Origin: Candidatus Poribacteria bacterium
GTDB taxonomy: Bacteria > Poribacteria > WGA-4E > PCPOR2b
NCBI GenBank assembly: GCA_965208325.1
Contig: OZ242326.1
Location: forward strand, 352,001 to 416,000
Length of the DNA stretch: 64,000 nt
Direction: 5' to 3'
Shown: positions 32,644-39,852 of the stretch, piece after piece
Layout of the letters: the number at the start of each line of letters is the position of its first letter
Numbering within the stretch: position 1 is the first letter of the stretch
Translations under genes and position numbers: made by a program
The notes under the pieces: model-generated
What the model was told of the DNA's origin: nothing
The model's input: only the letters and a program-made list of their open reading frames with translations
Database searches by the model: none

Positions 32644-33711
32644 ATGCCTGAAATACCCAAACCGATATTGATTCAAAAGGACGAACTTCGTGAATTCGTT
32701 GGAACGCTGTATCAGAAGACTGGCGTACCGCAAGATCACGCCAACCTAATGGCAGATTTACAAGTCGAAACCGATTTGCGAGGCGTGTTTTCGCACGGTA
32801 CGCGTGCGGTTCCAGGGTACATCGAGAAGCTTCTTGATGGCAAAATAAACCCGACGCCGCGGTTCGAAATTGTCAAAGAGGCGCCCAGCACCGCTGTCAT
32901 TGACGGAGACAATGCATTAGGGCATGTCCCCTCCGCGAAGGCGATGGAAATGGCCATCGAAAAAGCCAAATCTATGGGAATCGGCGCCGTAGGTGTCTGC
33001 AACGCTGGGCACTTCGGCGCCGCAGCGTGCTACGGAATGATGGCTGTCCGCGAAAAAATGATCGGCTTTGCCACAACAAGTACAGCGATGCGGAGCGTCG
33101 TCGCACCCGGCGGTGCAACGCCCGTAGTCGGTAACGTGGCGCTCTGCTACGCCTACCCGTCCCGAACCGAACAACCCGTGGTGCTCGACATGGCGTGCGG
33201 CATCTCGGCCTGGAATAGGATTGAAACCATGCGCATGTACAATATCCATATCCCGATGGACTGGATGTTGGACATAAATGGGAAACCGACCAACGATCCG
33301 AGCAAGGGAGAGATGCTCAAACCTGCTGCAGGTCCAAAAGGTTACGGTTTGGCGATGGCTATGACGGCCCTCGCGGGCCCTCTAATTGGCGGCATGATGG
33401 GCTGTCATAAGGACGCTGGTCCATCTGAACACTTTTTCATAGCGTTCAACGTCTCTAGTTTCACCGACTACGATGATTTCATACGTGAAATGGACAGGTC
33501 GGTTCGCACGGTGAAAACTTCAAAGACTGTTGACGGCGTGGACCGGGTTTACCTGCCGGGCGAAATTGAATGGGAAAACTACGAACCGTGGAGCGACTAC
33601 GGGATTCCGCTCCACAAAGACCACTTGAGCGCGCTAGCGGAGACCGCCGAAAAACTCGGCGTTGATGTGTTTTGGGATGTGGGGGGAATAACCGCAGCGG
33701 GAACTCGTTGA
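32644..33711 (+). CDS. Ldh_2 family oxidoreductase (malate/L-lactate/sulfolactate dehydrogenase-like)
   Basis: DLRGVFSHG, GHFGAA, VLDMA, GPKGYGL, VYLPGE. Confidence 0.9.
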   Translation: MPEIPKPILIQKDELREFVGTLYQKTGVPQDHANLMADLQVETDLRGVFSHGTRAVPGYIEKLLDGKINPTPRFEIVKEAPSTAVIDGDNALGHVPSAKAMEMAIEKAKSMGIGAVGVCNAGHFGAAACYGMMAVREKMIGFATTSTAMRSVVAPGGATPVVGNVALCYAYPSRTEQPVVLDMACGISAWNRIETMRMYNIHIPMDWMLDINGKPTNDPSKGEMLKPAAGPKGYGLAMAMTALAGPLIGGMMGCHKDAGPSEHFFIAFNVSSFTDYDDFIREMDRSVRTVKTSKTVDGVDRVYLPGEIEWENYEPWSDYGIPLHKDHLSALAETAEKLGVDVFWDVGGITAAGTR

Positions 33712-33763: not shown

Positions 33764-34573
33764 TCAAACGCCATCCGACACCGAAGGTACGTTATCTTGA
33801 CAATAGACGGGCCGGAAGAGCGTGCGTCTTTTGAACGGCATTTCGGCAAGGTGTGCCGGGTGAGGCTCCCACTTGTGCCACTTGTTGCCAATCACGTTGT
33901 AGCAGTTGAATATGGCGACCCGGTCGGCAGTATCGTCCTCCCAACGGGCGCCTGAGTGAGTGATCGCCTCGGTAAAGAACAACACCGACCCTGCCGGGCA
34001 AGAATAATCCTCCCACAAGGGGCAATCCCGATTCTCAGTCGTTTTTGGCGGTGGAAATGCCGCTTTGTGGCTTCCGTTCAAAAACATAGTGCCGCCGCCG
34101 CGTTTTTTCACTGGGTTCAGCTCCCATACAACTCGCGTCAAACCACTGTGTACCTTGTCCGGATGCATATGATAGGTGTGTGAGTTTCCGGGAAAGTTGT
34201 GCATACCGCGTCCGCCATGAGGTCTAAAGTGGTCTTGGCCTTTGGCTCGAATCGTCAAAAACGTACCCTCCAAGCGAAAACCGTAGCACTCCTCGTTCGA
34301 ATAGCCGGACGCGACAAATTCGTTCATGAATCCCAAGACAGCTGGGTGATCTGTGAGTCTTTCGAGCGGACCGCCGATGGACGAACGGTGAGGCTCTGGA
34401 ATTGACTCGGGCTCTCTCTGCAGACGGTAACAAAACTCCCGCATCTCGACAACCTCATCGTCGTTCAGCACGCCGGGCAGAGCTATCCAGCCCCGTGTGT
34501 CGAAGATAAACTTCTGCTCTTCGGTAAACTCAATTGCCGGCGTTCCAACGGCGTTTGTCGAGGGCATAACCAT
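33764..34573 (-). CDS. phytanoyl-CoA dioxygenase (PhyH) family protein
   Basis: FIFDTRGW, PHGG, GSHK, FTEAITH. Confidence 0.85.
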   Translation of the reverse strand: MVMPSTNAVGTPAIEFTEEQKFIFDTRGWIALPGVLNDDEVVEMREFCYRLQREPESIPEPHRSSIGGPLERLTDHPAVLGFMNEFVASGYSNEECYGFRLEGTFLTIRAKGQDHFRPHGGRGMHNFPGNSHTYHMHPDKVHSGLTRVVWELNPVKKRGGGTMFLNGSHKAAFPPPKTTENRDCPLWEDYSCPAGSVLFFTEAITHSGARWEDDTADRVAIFNCYNVIGNKWHKWEPHPAHLAEMPFKRRTLFRPVYCQDNVPSVSDGV

Positions 34574-34677
34574 AAAAATAGCCTTCCATTTATTTGTGTT
34601 TCATTGACGACTTACAATTAGACGAATTACAATTACGGATTAAGGGCGGATGGCTTTTGTAGCTCGCCTACCTTCAA

Positions 34678-35565
34678 TCATACGCCCCACCGCTTCCGCA
34701 TCTTCTCCATCGGCACGGTTTCGCCCTGCATCCAAGCATAATGCGCAATCGGCTCATCTCCGATCCAACGTTCATCAACCGGTTCATCCGCGCGTTGGAA
34801 GCGTGTGTCAGCGCTAAGGCGGTAACGGTTCGTTGTGTTGTCCAGCGATCCGTGCATCGTGAACATGCCGAAAATTAACACATCTCCCATCTTAAATGAA
34901 CTCGTACCCCACTGCCCGCCGTAACGGTCAACTAATTCGATTGGATCATTCGAGAACGAGCCGGTCACATTGTCACGATCCACATCCATCTCGCCGTAAG
35001 TCTGTTTAATTAAATCAAAACGGTGGGAACCGACAAGAATCGCCAAAGGGCCCATCTCAAGCGGCAGGTCGCCAATTGGCGTCCAGCAGGTTACGACATG
35101 TTGCGTCCCGCGTCCCATGTAAACGATGTCGTAATGTGCACCGGTGAAGCCGCTCGGCTGTACCACGCGCAGCCATTTATAATCGTACGTGATGACGGGT
35201 GCACCGAAGAAATCTACAAAAAAACCCAAAACTTCAGGGGATTCGACCAGATTCAAAAATTCCGGTTGGTGGGTGACGGCGCTATTGCCGCCCATAAACA
35301 TGCCGCGCTTGCCTTCCGCCGGAATCCCGTCTGATACCGGATGCGCACGGTCGAGTTGCTCGTTCTCGTCCAGCTTCCTGAGCAGAAATCGGCGGGTTGC
35401 CTTGACGTTTTCCGGGTCGTACAATCCGCGAATTAACAGATATCCATCAGCCTTAAACCTAGCATACAGCTCCTCGCGGTCGCCGAGTACGCCATTTGCT
35501 TCTCGCAACCATCCAAGGTACTTCCCGCCCATTTCCATCTCTATTTTGTTCATCGTGAGAATCAC
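34678..35565 (-). CDS. phytanoyl-CoA dioxygenase (PhyH) family protein
   Basis: TGAHYD (HxD), GSHR, TMHGS, RLSADTRFQ. Confidence 0.9.
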   Translation of the reverse strand: MILTMNKIEMEMGGKYLGWLREANGVLGDREELYARFKADGYLLIRGLYDPENVKATRRFLLRKLDENEQLDRAHPVSDGIPAEGKRGMFMGGNSAVTHQPEFLNLVESPEVLGFFVDFFGAPVITYDYKWLRVVQPSGFTGAHYDIVYMGRGTQHVVTCWTPIGDLPLEMGPLAILVGSHRFDLIKQTYGEMDVDRDNVTGSFSNDPIELVDRYGGQWGTSSFKMGDVLIFGMFTMHGSLDNTTNRYRLSADTRFQRADEPVDERWIGDEPIAHYAWMQGETVPMEKMRKRWGV

Positions 35566-35712: not shown

Positions 35713-35741
35713 TTGACAAATTTCCAAAATTATATTACCAT
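35713..35741 (+). promoter_or_regulatory. sigma70-like promoter
   Basis: TTGACA-17-TACCAT upstream of 35782. Confidence 0.55.
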
Positions 35742-35781: not shown

Positions 35782-38154
35782 ATGTATCGCCAGAGGCATC
35801 TTGTTATTGTTAACCTGATAATGGTCGTTGTGCTAACGAGTTCCTGCGGCATCGGGCGAGTTTTTGAACCCCTTGTATTCAATTCCTATGAGTCTCGGAT
35901 GCAATCGGTCATTGAGCAAGGCACGGTTGTTAAAAATTACTTGAAAAGCCTTGAACGTGCGCTTCGGGATGGTGATGACCGCACTATCGCACTATTGGCG
36001 CCCGAAGCCATCCGTTCGTTTCCACCCTGTGAGGAAGAAATAGAACGCCGGACTGATCTGCCTGGTGTGGAAATTATCCGTTGGGAATCAACGCCGGGAA
36101 ATGGAGGAGGCAATCCTTGGGTAAACCTAGCAGACCACTGGGGAAGCGGATCAATAATATCGAAGAGTTCGTTTAACATGATTCACCTCAACATAATCAG
36201 CGGCGACATCTGCGAGCCAGAAATCCGCATTAGCATACAGGGCATTGATACCGCGGGAAGACACCGCCAAGATGTCAGTTATATGCGGCTCAAGGTAGAT
36301 TTCTCCGGGCACGCCGCTGTCATTCGAGACAGCCTAAAATTTGTTTCCCATTCGCTTATACGCACCGGAGATACGCTATTTAAAGACGAAACGGAGAAAC
36401 GGGGACTGGTATTTCAGCCGCCCAACGTTCCATTTCGGGACGACCTAAAATTTGCGCCCTTTACGGCTACGGGTGGTGGAGTCGCCGTCGCTGATGTAGA
36501 TGGGGACGGATGGGACGATGTATACCTCATCGGCAGCGCGCCGAACACAAGTAGATTTTATAAGAATATTGGTGCCGGATACTTTGAGGAGGCGACAGCG
36601 AGTTCCGGATTAGCAAACCCCCAAGATATGGCTATGGCTGCTGCCATTGGCGACGTTGACCGAGACGCTGATTTGGATATTGTTGTAACGCACGGTTTTG
36701 CGCCGCCTACACTCTTCCGTAACCGCGGCGATACGGTGTTCATTCGTGAGCCGTTCGCGTCTTCAAATGGGCAAACCGAAGAGGGTGCCGCGACGCCCTC
36801 GTTGGTTGATGTCGATAACGACGGGGACCTCGACCTGTATGTTGCATACTACGGTCCGGTGTCAGAATACGTACCGGACACGATATACATTGGACTTAAC
36901 GGTGTTCAAGACCGCCTCTACATCAATGATGGCGCAGGGAATTTCACGGAAGAGGCGCGAAGCCGGGGGATTACCGATTCGCGATGGACATTTCAAGGCG
37001 CATTTGCTGATTTCGATGAGGACGGCGATGCCGATCTTTACCAAATTAACGATTTTGGACGCAACACGCTCTATCTGAATGACGGGACGGGGAATTTTAC
37101 GGATTGCACCCGCGACTGGGCGGGAACTGAAGCCTTTGGGTTCGGTATGAGCGGCAGTTGGGGCGACTTCAATGCGGACGGCAATCTCGATATGTATATC
37201 GCCGGCATTGCTTCAGGCGTGCAATGGTTCGCGGAACAGACCGATGTTATGCGATTTTACCTTCTAAACGCGAAGCGGAGCCGCTACTTGCCGCCCGCGC
37301 AAGTTGACCGCATAACAGCGGAACTTGAACCCTATATGATTTCCGCCGATCATCTGGGCGATTCCTTGCCCGCAATTCGCCAGCGATACTTCCAAGGAAA
37401 TGTCTTGCTTCGGCGCAACGGCAACGGATTTGATAACATCAGCCAACCATCCGGTACAGAATATGGCGAATGGGCATGGGGTTCAGGGTTTGTTGACTTT
37501 CAAAACGACGGACTAGTTGACCTTTACACAACCAACGGTTTTATTACGGGCGAGAAAAAAGACGATCTCTGAATGCCATTTTTCGAATCGGCGGTCCGCC
37601 GGCCTCTCGATTATTATGAAGGCGCATTTTATTCCGCCGATTTTGTTCGCTCCAATTCTTGGAACGGACTGGAAAGCAACTTTGCTTATCTCAACCTTGA
37701 TGGAAGTAACTTCCTTGAACTAGGTTTTGCACTTGGCATTGACAGTACTGCTGACGGACGAAGTTTCGTCGCTTTTGATTGTGACGGCGACGGGGATCAA
37801 GATTTGCTTGTTGCTAATCGGAACGCACCGGCTAAACTATTTGTCAACCGCTGGGCGGACGCTGCGAATAATAATTGGTTGAAAGTTCGTCTCATCGGTG
37901 ACAATGATAGAACCGCAGTTGGCGCCGTGGTTAAAGTTCAAACGGGCAATCGGAAGCAAGCCCAAACGTCCTCCTTGGGCAATAGCTACTTGTCCTGCTA
38001 CGCCGGACCGCTCCTATTTGGAATTGGTCCCGCAACTCGAGTCGATGCGGTAGATGTGGTTTGGCCGGGCGGTGAATCTAGCCGAATCACCGGGATTAAC
38101 GCTAACCAAATGATTGAAGTGCGTTTTCCCGCCGCAGCTCGGACGGACAAATGA
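35782..38154 (+). CDS. CRTAC1-like FG-GAP/ASPIC-UnbV lipoprotein with in-frame TGA (37570-37572), probable selenoprotein of 790 aa
   Basis: Lipobox-like LTSSC; many DxDxDGxxD repeats; a further repeat and the ASPIC/UnbV domain (LLFGIG...VVWPGG) continue in frame after the TGA; hairpin downstream. Confidence 0.75.
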
Positions 38155-38684
38155 CGCTAATGACGAAACACCTTGGGAATTTACCCTGGCCGTATCTGCC
38201 TTTAGTTCTATCGCTCTCGGTTCTGGCGGGTTGCACTCAGGTCCATCAGACAATCGCCGTCGGTGAAATGATTGGCGATATTGATGTTGTTCAACTATCG
38301 GGTAAAAGAGAGAAACTTTCCTCTCTGTCCAAAGACCGTATCACTTTAGTGGTGTTCTGGGCAACTTGGTGCCAACGTTGCCGTGAAGAAGTTCCGGACA
38401 TCAATAATTTAGCGGCTGATTACGGATCGTCTTTAGCCGTGATTGGAATTTCAGCGGGCGAGACCCTCCACACCGTCAAAGCCCATTCCGCAGGCCTAGG
38501 CATACGCTACCCAGTGGTTGTTACCGAGTTATCCAACTTGGCTGCACTCGGAATTGACAGTATTCCGCGGTTGGTGGTTTTAGACTCGAAAGGGAGAATT
38601 CAGCGGATTGAAAACGGCGTGAATACGTCTTTACGGGCACGACTCACGCAACTCGCTCACGAAAACGAACCAAATCAAAATTGA
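38151..38684 (+). CDS. TlpA-family thiol-disulfide oxidoreductase, lipoprotein
   Basis: FWATWCQRC; LAGC lipobox; cis-Pro IP motif; ATGA overlap with the previous gene. Confidence 0.88.
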   Translation: MTLMTKHLGNLPWPYLPLVLSLSVLAGCTQVHQTIAVGEMIGDIDVVQLSGKREKLSSLSKDRITLVVFWATWCQRCREEVPDINNLAADYGSSLAVIGISAGETLHTVKAHSAGLGIRYPVVVTELSNLAALGIDSIPRLVVLDSKGRIQRIENGVNTSLRARLTQLAHENEPNQN

Positions 38685-39408: not shown

Positions 39409-39852
39409 TTACTCATGACTTCTCAGGTGTTCAATGTGGTTCTGGTTAAGGACGCTCATTTCGTCTCGCACGCCGCTGATTTCAGCTCGCACGCCGCTGA
39501 TTTCAGCTCGCACGCCGCTGATTTCAGCTCGTACATCGCTGATTTCGGTTCGTACATCGCTGATTTCGGATTTAAATTCAATTCGTAGTTTGCCAATCTC
39601 ATTCCGCAGGTCGCTAATTTCAGATCGAGTTTCGTTTCGCAGGTCGCTAATTTCGGAGCGAATTTCGGTTCTGACTTCATCAATTCGATTCTCTAGGCGT
39701 TGTCCTTGCTGCTGAAAATCGTCGTTTTGCTTGTCCATCCGCTTTTCAAGTTGCGCCGTGCGATAGAACAAGACGGCAATCTGGCCAATAAAACCCACGA
39801 CGACAACAATAATAAGGATTGTGTGCGATGGTGACCACGTGCCGAAGTCCAT
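39409..39852 (-). CDS. TM-anchored coiled-coil protein with tandem heptad repeats
   Basis: N-terminal TM helix; EISDVRT/EISGVRA repeats. Confidence 0.8.
   Translation of the reverse strand: MDFGTWSPSHTILIIVVVVGFIGQIAVLFYRTAQLEKRMDKQNDDFQQQGQRLENRIDEVRTEIRSEISDLRNETRSEISDLRNEIGKLRIEFKSEISDVRTEISDVRAEISGVRAEISGVRAEISGVRDEMSVLNQNHIEHLRSHE
39466..39570. repeat. 21-bp coding tandem repeat, 5 units
   Basis: TCGCACGCCGCTGATTTCAGC x3 plus TCGTACATCGCTGATTTCGGW x2. Confidence 0.9.

Follow-up and report, generated by a model that had tools for sequence, protein, structure and literature searches.

A probable selenocysteine codon in a CRTAC1-like beta-propeller gene of Candidatus Poribacteria, coupled to a gene for a TlpA-like lipoprotein

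Most known selenoproteins carry selenocysteine (Sec) in a thioredoxin-like fold, and the FG-GAP/UnbV family of beta-propellers is usually treated as a calcium-binding, adhesin-like scaffold. Here we describe a member of that family that probably carries Sec, encoded on contig OZ242326.1 of a Candidatus Poribacteria bacterium (assembly GCA_965208325.1). The gene lies in the 64,000 nucleotides (nt) from position 352,001 to 416,000 of this contig, hereafter the window, to whose numbering all plain coordinates refer. Two open reading frames (ORFs), split by an in-frame UGA, together encode the propeller protein, and they are followed by a gene for a thioredoxin-fold lipoprotein related to TlpA (Table 1).

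The closest described precedent is found in S9 Table of Kim et al. 2016 (PMC4807772), which lists four candidates, each a two-ORF gene with an in-frame UGA between an FG-GAP part and an ASPIC/UnbV part; bSECISearch found a Sec insertion sequence (SECIS) in three of the four (PMC4807772). These candidates, compared with ours by description only, come from another phylum, and the residue aligned to the UGA in their closest match is given as G (PMC4807772). They are confined to the supplement, the family being named nowhere in the main text, and nothing is reported on cysteine (Cys) forms, covariation, a link to TlpA or the neighboring genes (PMC4807772). Later catalogues are silent on the family as far as our comparison reached. 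Table 1 of a 2026 review, the part of it compared here, covers 119 prokaryotic selenoprotein families and has neither a row with PF13517, PF01839 or PF07593 nor a beta-propeller fold (PMC13188914). FG-GAP, ASPIC, UnbV and CRTAC do not occur in the main text and one supplement of BSepDB, and the family is not mentioned in the main text of deep-Sep, whose nine new families and supplements lie outside the comparison. NCBIfam holds no family for the joined protein, and a literature search combining selenoprotein or selenocysteine with FG-GAP, UnbV or ASPIC gave nothing related among the matches listed. The first-pass annotation of the window, made from the sequence alone, had called this a poorly described selenoprotein system, and the record, a 2016 supplementary table and absence from the 2026 list, bears it out.

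Three groups of known systems resemble parts of the locus. The recoding signal is of the SelB/SECIS type known from Escherichia coli fdhF, with a hairpin inside the ORF just after the UGA; relative to the consensus bacterial SECIS (bSECIS) model of the review (PMC13188914), the upper stem in the present family is short (4–8 base pairs, bp) and its register differs between clades. The propeller protein resembles CRTAC1 (PDB 9etn_A, the only solved relative) in having FG-GAP repeats followed by UnbV_ASPIC. The phmmer match (E 4.4e-14) covers residues 227–354 and 654–784, leaving residues 355–653, including the region around the UGA-encoded residue 597, unaligned by sequence. A literature search for a CRTAC1 propeller crystal structure, judged by titles and the starts of abstracts, gave no paper on 9etn. 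Unlike the CRTAC1 family, the window protein has an additional 200-residue N-terminal domain, a helical insert at residues 476–535, and Sec where most members have Asp or Glu; Pfam finds no EGF-like domain in it. The downstream protein shares with TlpA, ResA and DsbE a thioredoxin fold, WCxxC, a conserved cis-Pro position (IP), a lipobox or membrane anchor and an extracytoplasmic location, but scores far below the NCBIfam cut-offs and has no adjoining cytochrome-maturation genes. Exported redox selenoproteins from what is broadly the same type of pathway are catalogued in the review, for example a UGC-containing TlpA family and Prx-like proteins; in its thioredoxin-fold selenoproteins Sec occupies a CxxC position, whereas here the TlpA-like protein keeps two Cys and Sec would lie in the beta-propeller (PMC13188914). 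The recoding is the standard bacterial mechanism, and what is new is Sec in a CRTAC1-like fold accompanied by a separate, translationally coupled thioredoxin lipoprotein.

Two reading frames around a conserved UGA codon

Gene callers divide the locus into two ORFs that, as the first-pass annotation observed, abut in one frame. The upstream ORF ends KKDDL at a TGA (37570–37572), and an ATG (37573) follows directly in the same frame, which stays open to the TGA at 38152–38154. At the ends of this gene and of the TlpA-like gene, UGA acts as a normal stop codon. The first-pass annotation further held that the second ORF has no ribosome-binding site and that only the joined ORFs give a CRTAC1-like architecture. 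The former is correct insofar as a GGAGG-like core is absent from the 20 nt before 37573, but it makes a weak argument because that absence is its whole basis. The latter is well founded. In Pfam searches the upstream ORF alone lacks UnbV_ASPIC, the downstream ORF alone has UnbV_ASPIC and a sub-threshold FG-GAP_3 match, and only the joined frame has the FG-GAP repeats (five FG-GAP_3 stretches) and C-terminal UnbV_ASPIC of CRTAC1-like proteins.

The fused 790-amino acid (aa) protein gives one compact fold with a mean predicted local distance difference test (pLDDT) score of 86.2 and a predicted template modeling (pTM) score of 0.89 (AlphaFold2, 35-sequence alignment). Strands at residues 565–689 cross the junction, with propeller strands on both sides of residue 597, which itself opens a helix (597–606) directly after blade strand 592–595. 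The description of the product as a lipoprotein is apt only for the window copy and its nearest relatives, which retain the lipobox Cys; other relatives (e.g., P0013 and P0014) have an N-terminal hydrophobic segment without that Cys.

The genome assembly, a single 4.7-Mb contig, encodes the Sec machinery. Genes for SelA (589 bits), SelB (374 bits) and tRNA-Sec (selC; 77.5 bits) lie side by side at C1:2041509–2044983, and selD (377 bits), which contains one in-frame TGA, is at C1:4481278–4482201. All four score above curated cut-offs.

The UGA is conserved as a column. Relatives at E ≤1e-20 occur in 53 of the 176 genomes of the phylum, and exactly one in-frame TGA is present in seven matches from six genomes, each time (7/7) in the same aligned column and down to 34% identity. 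Scans of metagenomes and of genomes (one genome per species) used motifs from Sec and Cys forms, so that the shares they give describe that clade and not the whole FG-GAP/UnbV family: among the 152 pooled loci the column holds TGA in 135, TGC or TGT in 13, GCC in one and no aligned residue in three. The 77 metagenome loci contribute TGA 68, TGC 7 and TGT 2, and the 75 genome loci TGA 67, TGC 3, TGT 1, GCC 1 and three without an aligned residue. The genome loci span Acidobacteriota, Planctomycetota, Verrucomicrobiota, Myxococcota, Deltaproteobacteria, Latescibacterota, Binatia and others. Members of the family are frequent among bacteria from soil, the sea and sponges, across many phyla, yet it is missing from the 2026 list.

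Protein databases give a wider view of the same column. Among 120 protein matches listed, with the residue taken from the best BLAST segment only, 15 end exactly at DD[LV] and four full-length proteins (807–820 aa) have Cys; the others have Asp (67, plus 23 one-residue alignment shifts beside Asp), Glu (7), Ser (2), Asn (1) or Gly (1). Because gene callers split such genes at the Sec codon, databases hold a truncated propeller and an orphan UnbV_ASPIC protein in place of one product. Cys or Sec in homologs is expected of a selenoprotein, and proteins P0017–P0020 have Cys at the aligned column. The split between Sec/Cys and Asp/Glu marks this one residue as functionally central and offers a handle on CRTAC1-like function. 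Two further observations concern the column. The LDFA[RQ]IGLD clade (loci L049–L066 and L131–L136) contains Sec and Cys versions of a single protein that are very similar to each other, and locus L173 (L173:1207–5181) has TGA at this column in a protein of the 'FFWRQVV' type, in which Asp is usual.

A true stop at this TGA would make the locus either a recent pseudogene or a pair of genes for separate 596-aa and 193-aa proteins, the second starting at ATG 37573. The ATG directly after the TGA, found here and in the nearest relatives, is compatible with such a restart, as is the splitting of the gene by callers in 15 of the 120 matches listed. However, 93 of 121 distinct forms have CTN directly after the TGA (ATG in 19, ATT or ATC in 5, GTG in 1, other in 3), which leaves no conserved restart codon. 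Purifying selection is as strong after the TGA as before it: in comparisons of the window gene with two relatives, the ratio of nonsynonymous to synonymous substitution rates (dN/dS) is 0.113 and 0.118 on the downstream side and 0.117 and 0.086 on the upstream side. The occurrence of TGA in a single column in 135 of 152 loci across many phyla, the Cys codons at that column in close relatives and the propeller blade that crosses the junction in a confident single model likewise speak against termination. Of the 15 UnbV_ASPIC matches in the genome, the one described here is alone in a short, 193-aa frame; the other 14 lie in open frames of at least 566 aa with no stop within the match. Lastly, contigs assembled from sponge-metagenome runs X4, X6 and X7 span 37300–38300 with 1–7 differences, none at the TGA or the hairpin described below (X6 and X7 are from other studies and X4 is possibly from the source sample; run X8 lacks cover at 37538–37605). 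Equal selection, the lack of a conserved restart codon, the single model, the lone short UnbV_ASPIC frame and the unchanged TGA in other assemblies together make a pseudogene or a two-gene locus extremely improbable.

A hairpin downstream of the UGA

The first-pass annotation had described a hairpin with its loop about 21 nt after the UGA, enclosed by TCGA...TCGA, and the coordinates agree. Arms TCGGCG (37588–37593) and CGCCGG (37597–37602) enclose the loop GTC (37594–37596), which begins 21 nt past the UGA, and the flanking TCGA segments (37583–37586 and 37607–37610) are able to pair. A bSECIS, as defined in the review, has a 3–9 nt loop, a 4–16 bp stem, G among the first two loop bases, a distance of 16–37 nt from the UGA and an energy of ≤−7.5 kcal/mol (PMC13188914). 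The window hairpin falls within each of these ranges, with a 6-bp stem, a GUC loop, a 21-nt distance and −7.7 kcal/mol in context (−7.1 kcal/mol isolated, and −13.9 kcal/mol in a constrained fold with the TCGA/TCGA stem).

The fold of the window copy taken singly is unexceptional, and the case for a hairpin beyond chance comes from comparison. Of 64 distinct TGA forms, 62 have a perfect stem of 4 bp or more that is spaced 20–22 nt from the UGA and has G among its first two loop bases; in 2,923 in-frame windows taken as controls from these genes the rate is 6.2%. Such a stem occurs in none of the six distinct Cys forms, where no hairpin is better than −0.3 kcal/mol. In the closest Sec/Cys pair of clades the Sec forms have UUGGGC-UGGAY-GCCCAA and the Cys forms have lost the 3′ arm, as have the Cys versions in the LDFA[RQ]IGLD clade. 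Moreover, the register (codon phase) of the hairpin and the peptide it encodes vary by clade (e.g., ...SGAVAH, ...EGVGRR, ...ESAVRR and ...AQIGLD), so what is conserved is the RNA and not the peptide. The loop in many relatives is GGUC, as in fdhF.

Covariation supports the stem. In alignment A5 (31 sequences), 98.4% of stem cells pair, and pair 21–30, at which both bases are third codon positions, is C-G in 16 sequences, U-A in 14 and G-C in one, and unpaired in none. The covariation score of 0.347 (shuffle mean 0.172) was matched by 0 of 500 shuffles and is above every slid control. Within the clade of the window copy the arms likewise co-vary, as UCGGCG/CGCCGG, UCGACG/CGUCGG and GGCGGC/GCCGCC.

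Several observations weigh against reading the UGA as Sec, or add less to that reading than might be expected. Standing by itself, the window hairpin is not significant, which would favor a true stop: comparison with shuffled sequences gives the 60-nt stretch a z-score of −0.33, and its unconstrained minimum-energy fold (−15.9 to −16.2 kcal/mol) uses another pairing. Two of the 64 TGA forms (L090 and L108) lack a perfect stem, and L173 shows no hairpin under the strict criteria. With SelB encoded in 167 of the phylum's 176 genomes, its presence is a requirement that does not discriminate, and we dropped its co-occurrence with the TGA form as an argument. The scan motifs, as noted above, came from Sec and Cys forms themselves, and no RNA run was found among the sequencing runs matching the stretch.

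Against these points stand the Sec machinery, the column held by TGA or Cys, the covarying SECIS that is lost in Cys forms and the purifying selection of equal strength in both parts of the gene, because of which we regard TGA 37570–37572 as almost certainly a Sec codon. The first-pass annotation had reached the same reading and proposed aligning homologs at the junction; that alignment yielded both the conserved TGA or Cys and the covarying hairpin. The gene very probably encodes one exported, 790-residue selenoprotein that is likely tethered to the membrane. On sequence comparison it is a well-supported new bacterial selenoprotein of a scarcely recorded family. By the standard mechanism, the hairpin would recruit SelB with Sec-tRNA(Sec), Sec would be inserted at residue 597 and the ribosome would continue to the stop at 38152–38154. 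When selenium is absent, a truncated 596-aa product would be expected.

Residue 597 and the TlpA-like partner

Residue 597 separates two kinds of propeller. Columns specific to the Sec/Cys clade are W482, N628 and G629 (in an S[WL]NG motif), N679, W699 and Y736; W482, in the helical insert, is present in 24 of 24 Sec/Cys forms and falls in a gap in 11 of 11 Asp/Glu forms (alignment A6). Apart from residue 597 itself, the 24 Sec/Cys forms have no Cys or His column at ≥60%, and thus no conserved resolving Cys in the propeller, which counts against a redox relay with TlpA. We also considered a partner pair like the Trp-Asn of glutathione peroxidases in the SWNG motif and dropped it, the Trp being Leu in one clade.

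We lean slightly toward Sec597 being a catalytic nucleophile or redox residue gained in one clade, a reading drawn from these alignments. Alternatively, it could be a metal ligand together with Asp595, the Asp or Glu of the wider family binding a hard ion such as calcium and the Sec/Cys clade being retuned to a softer metal. FG-GAP propellers carry DxDxDG calcium loops, the column alternates between Sec/Cys and Asp/Glu, Asp595 is retained in ≥90% of the 35 sequences of both kinds, and no partner Cys is conserved, all of which a metal site would accommodate. Against such a site, His or Cys co-ligands are not conserved in the Sec/Cys clade, and the recurrent TlpA-like partner and redoxin fusions described below better fit thiol chemistry. 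The start of a helix just after a strand is moreover a typical place for a redox Cys or Sec. We consider a metal site the main alternative, though an unlikely one.

The gene downstream encodes a protein with Pfam Thioredoxin_8, AhpC-TSA and Redoxin matches, a CxxC motif and a lipobox as extracytoplasmic anchor. Its scores lie below all NCBIfam cut-offs (ResA 64.4 against 170, DsbE 39.4 against 123, TlpA 38 against 230), and by these profiles the product of 38151–38684 is TlpA-like and not a TlpA equivalog. That this WCQRC thioredoxin-fold lipoprotein gene overlaps its neighbor by ATGA, as the first-pass annotation stated, is confirmed at 38151, where its start shares 4 nt with the stop of the selenoprotein gene. 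If translation begins at the second ATG (38160), the gene starts 5 nt after that stop; the TlpA-like gene of genome G035 begins at the equivalent of the second ATG, and the 4-nt overlap is not conserved. Coupling is tight either way. The genome contains only six TlpA-like matches and one DsbD_TM protein. Separately, the TlpA-like paralog at C1:4184465–4184791 has one in-frame TGA and is itself probably a thioredoxin-fold selenoprotein.

A profile built from four seeds recovered the same TlpA subfamily downstream of the propeller gene, on the same strand, in 10 further loci (L130, L139, L142, L143, L145, L166, L168, L171, L172 and L181). The lipobox Cys and FWxTWCxxC are invariant across 13 neighboring TlpA orthologs. 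In L173 the subfamily is fused to the propeller: the part after the TGA contains UnbV_ASPIC, Redoxin and TPR in one frame. These patterns suggest that the propeller and the TlpA-like protein probably function together. In that case the co-expressed lipoprotein would be the likeliest electron donor to the oxidized Sec or to a shared substrate, and the electrons might enter through the single DsbD-type protein of the genome.

Recycling of Sec by TlpA had been part of the first-pass annotation, and here its two halves separate. The gene coupling is real in the window, and the subfamily recurs and is fused to a Sec form in L173. The recycling itself goes a step further than the coupling, because most loci are without a TlpA gene, redoxin domains are also fused to Asp/Glu forms and the propeller has no conserved resolving Cys; judged from sequence, direct reduction of Sec597 by TlpA is quite possible but short of probable. 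Within the phylum a TlpA gene follows three of seven propeller copies, and none was seen in the examined flanks of 54 of 67 genome loci and 67 of 68 metagenome loci. Many Asp/Glu forms are fused to AhpC-TSA or Redoxin domains in the Pfam lists, so the link to redoxins is a trait of the wider family, independent of Sec.

TlpA might instead be a partner of the propeller family as such and never touch Sec597. It would then share the propeller's substrate or have some other envelope protein as its target, and would only be co-transcribed here. Besides the fusions in Asp/Glu forms and the many Sec-form loci without a nearby TlpA, an acyltransferase gene that stands between propeller and TlpA in several operons fits this arrangement. 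It accords less well with the tight coupling seen in the window genome, G035, G137, L130 and L172, with the single polypeptide that joins TlpA to a Sec form in L173, or with the recurrence of one consistent subfamily with an invariant lipobox Cys and FWxTWCxxC. We treat such an indirect partnership as a tentative alternative.

Gene neighborhoods and further features

Lipid or isoprenoid genes make up most of the neighbors of the Sec/Cys clade, with at least one in 39 of 61 scanned genome loci (a hand count in which kin loci are not independent). A recurrent tight operon consists, in this order, of an Amino_oxidase gene (CrtI-like), one or two Sec-propeller genes, a gene for a 550–600-aa acyltransferase, TlpA and an ABC1/UbiB kinase gene (L139:2–6837, L142, L145, L168, L181, L171, L159, L177 and L185). 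TlpA is absent from this operon in L159, L177 and L185, and no ABC1/UbiB kinase gene was seen in L139, L171 and L181; the genes of the L139 operon abut at 1483, 3903, 5558 and 6115. Some clades (including L049–L066 and L131–L136) adjoin MMPL/Patched-SSD transporter genes with Rieske or fatty-acid-desaturase genes, and further clades adjoin AMP-binding, Ketoacyl-synt_2, B12 radical-SAM and LPG_synthase_TM genes. RPE65 carotenoid oxygenase genes lie upstream of the propeller gene in L182, L189 and L165. In the window the neighbors are two divergent PhyH-type dioxygenase genes and an Ldh_2 dehydrogenase gene (33764–35565 on the − strand and 32644–33711 on the + strand). PhyH genes also flank the propeller gene in G033 and G034, and a fatty-acid desaturase gene stands beside it in G137, G033 and G034.

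Because the flanking genes of relatives are mostly of these kinds, they suggest a hydrophobic lipid or isoprenoid substrate in the cell envelope. We conjecture that the Sec/Cys clade of CRTAC1-like propellers could be an envelope redox enzyme acting on such molecules, kept reduced by a TlpA lipoprotein that is fed by DsbD. As a whole this proposal is speculative, and we hold it to be rather doubtful. Its activities might include reduction of lipid or carotenoid hydroperoxides, or double-bond isomerization by selenol addition. Were it true, the CRTAC1/ASPIC/UnbV family, to which animal CRTAC1 belongs, would gain a first enzymatic function, and selenoenzymes would gain a fold unrelated to thioredoxin. 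The TlpA partner and the lipid and isoprenoid operons yield hypotheses that can be tested.

The features of the locus are collected in Table 1. The N-terminal domain found in the model (residues ∼25–200) had no family match in the Pfam or NCBIfam search.

Table 1. Features of the propeller–TlpA locus in window coordinates
Feature	Position	Strand	Remarks
Promoter-like site TTGACA-17 nt-TACCAT	35713..35741	+	∼40 nt upstream of start codon; consensus scan only, 10/12 matches
Upstream ORF	35782-37572	+	596 aa; C-terminal KKDDL, then TGA 37570-37572
Downstream ORF	37573-38154	+	193 aa; starts ATG 37573, stop TGA 38152-38154
Joined gene, predicted selenoprotein	35782..38154	+	790 codons + stop; callers split at 37572/37573
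Signal peptide, possible lipobox (residues 1-22, ...LTSSC)	35782..35847	+	Inferred from translation
N-terminal alpha/beta domain (residues ∼25-200)	35854..36381	+	Model: helices 24-72, strands 84-202
FG-GAP beta-propeller (residues ∼225-690), interrupted by probable Sec codon	36454..37851	+	Pfam FG-GAP_3 E 4e-38, five stretches; FG-GAP E 1e-11
Helical insert (residues ∼476-535, invariant W482)	37207..37386	+	Sec/Cys forms only; model helices 481-535
UGA probably read as Sec (residue 597)	37570..37572	+	TGA column conserved; Cys in relatives; Sec machinery present
Putative SECIS element	37583..37610	+	Apical hairpin 37588-37602, 6 bp, loop GUC; possible lower stem TCGA/TCGA
UnbV_ASPIC (residues 712-778)	37915..38115	+	Pfam PF07593 E 1.9e-13; aligns to 9etn_A residues 370-503
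TlpA/ResA-like thioredoxin-fold lipoprotein gene	38151..38684	+	177 aa; WCQRC, LAGC lipobox; alternative start 38160

Some minor observations concern related loci and the surrounding DNA. Tandem pairs of Sec-propeller genes are common in Acidobacteriota loci. L048 (G032:C617) contains a pair of neighboring Sec-propeller paralogs, both of which have a TGA and a GGUC hairpin of their own, in a cluster with genes for HMG-CoA reductase, ketoacyl synthases, an amine oxidase, an acyltransferase and ABC1. At least half of the sampled words of the stretch 35782–38684 are present in eight sequencing runs from five studies, four of the runs being labeled sponge metagenome. Downstream of the TlpA-like gene, a 147-aa coiled-coil-like ORF lies on the − strand at 39409–39852; the + strand frame over it (39434–39715) encodes RTPLISA-like tandem repeats, and the DNA there is therefore repetitive.

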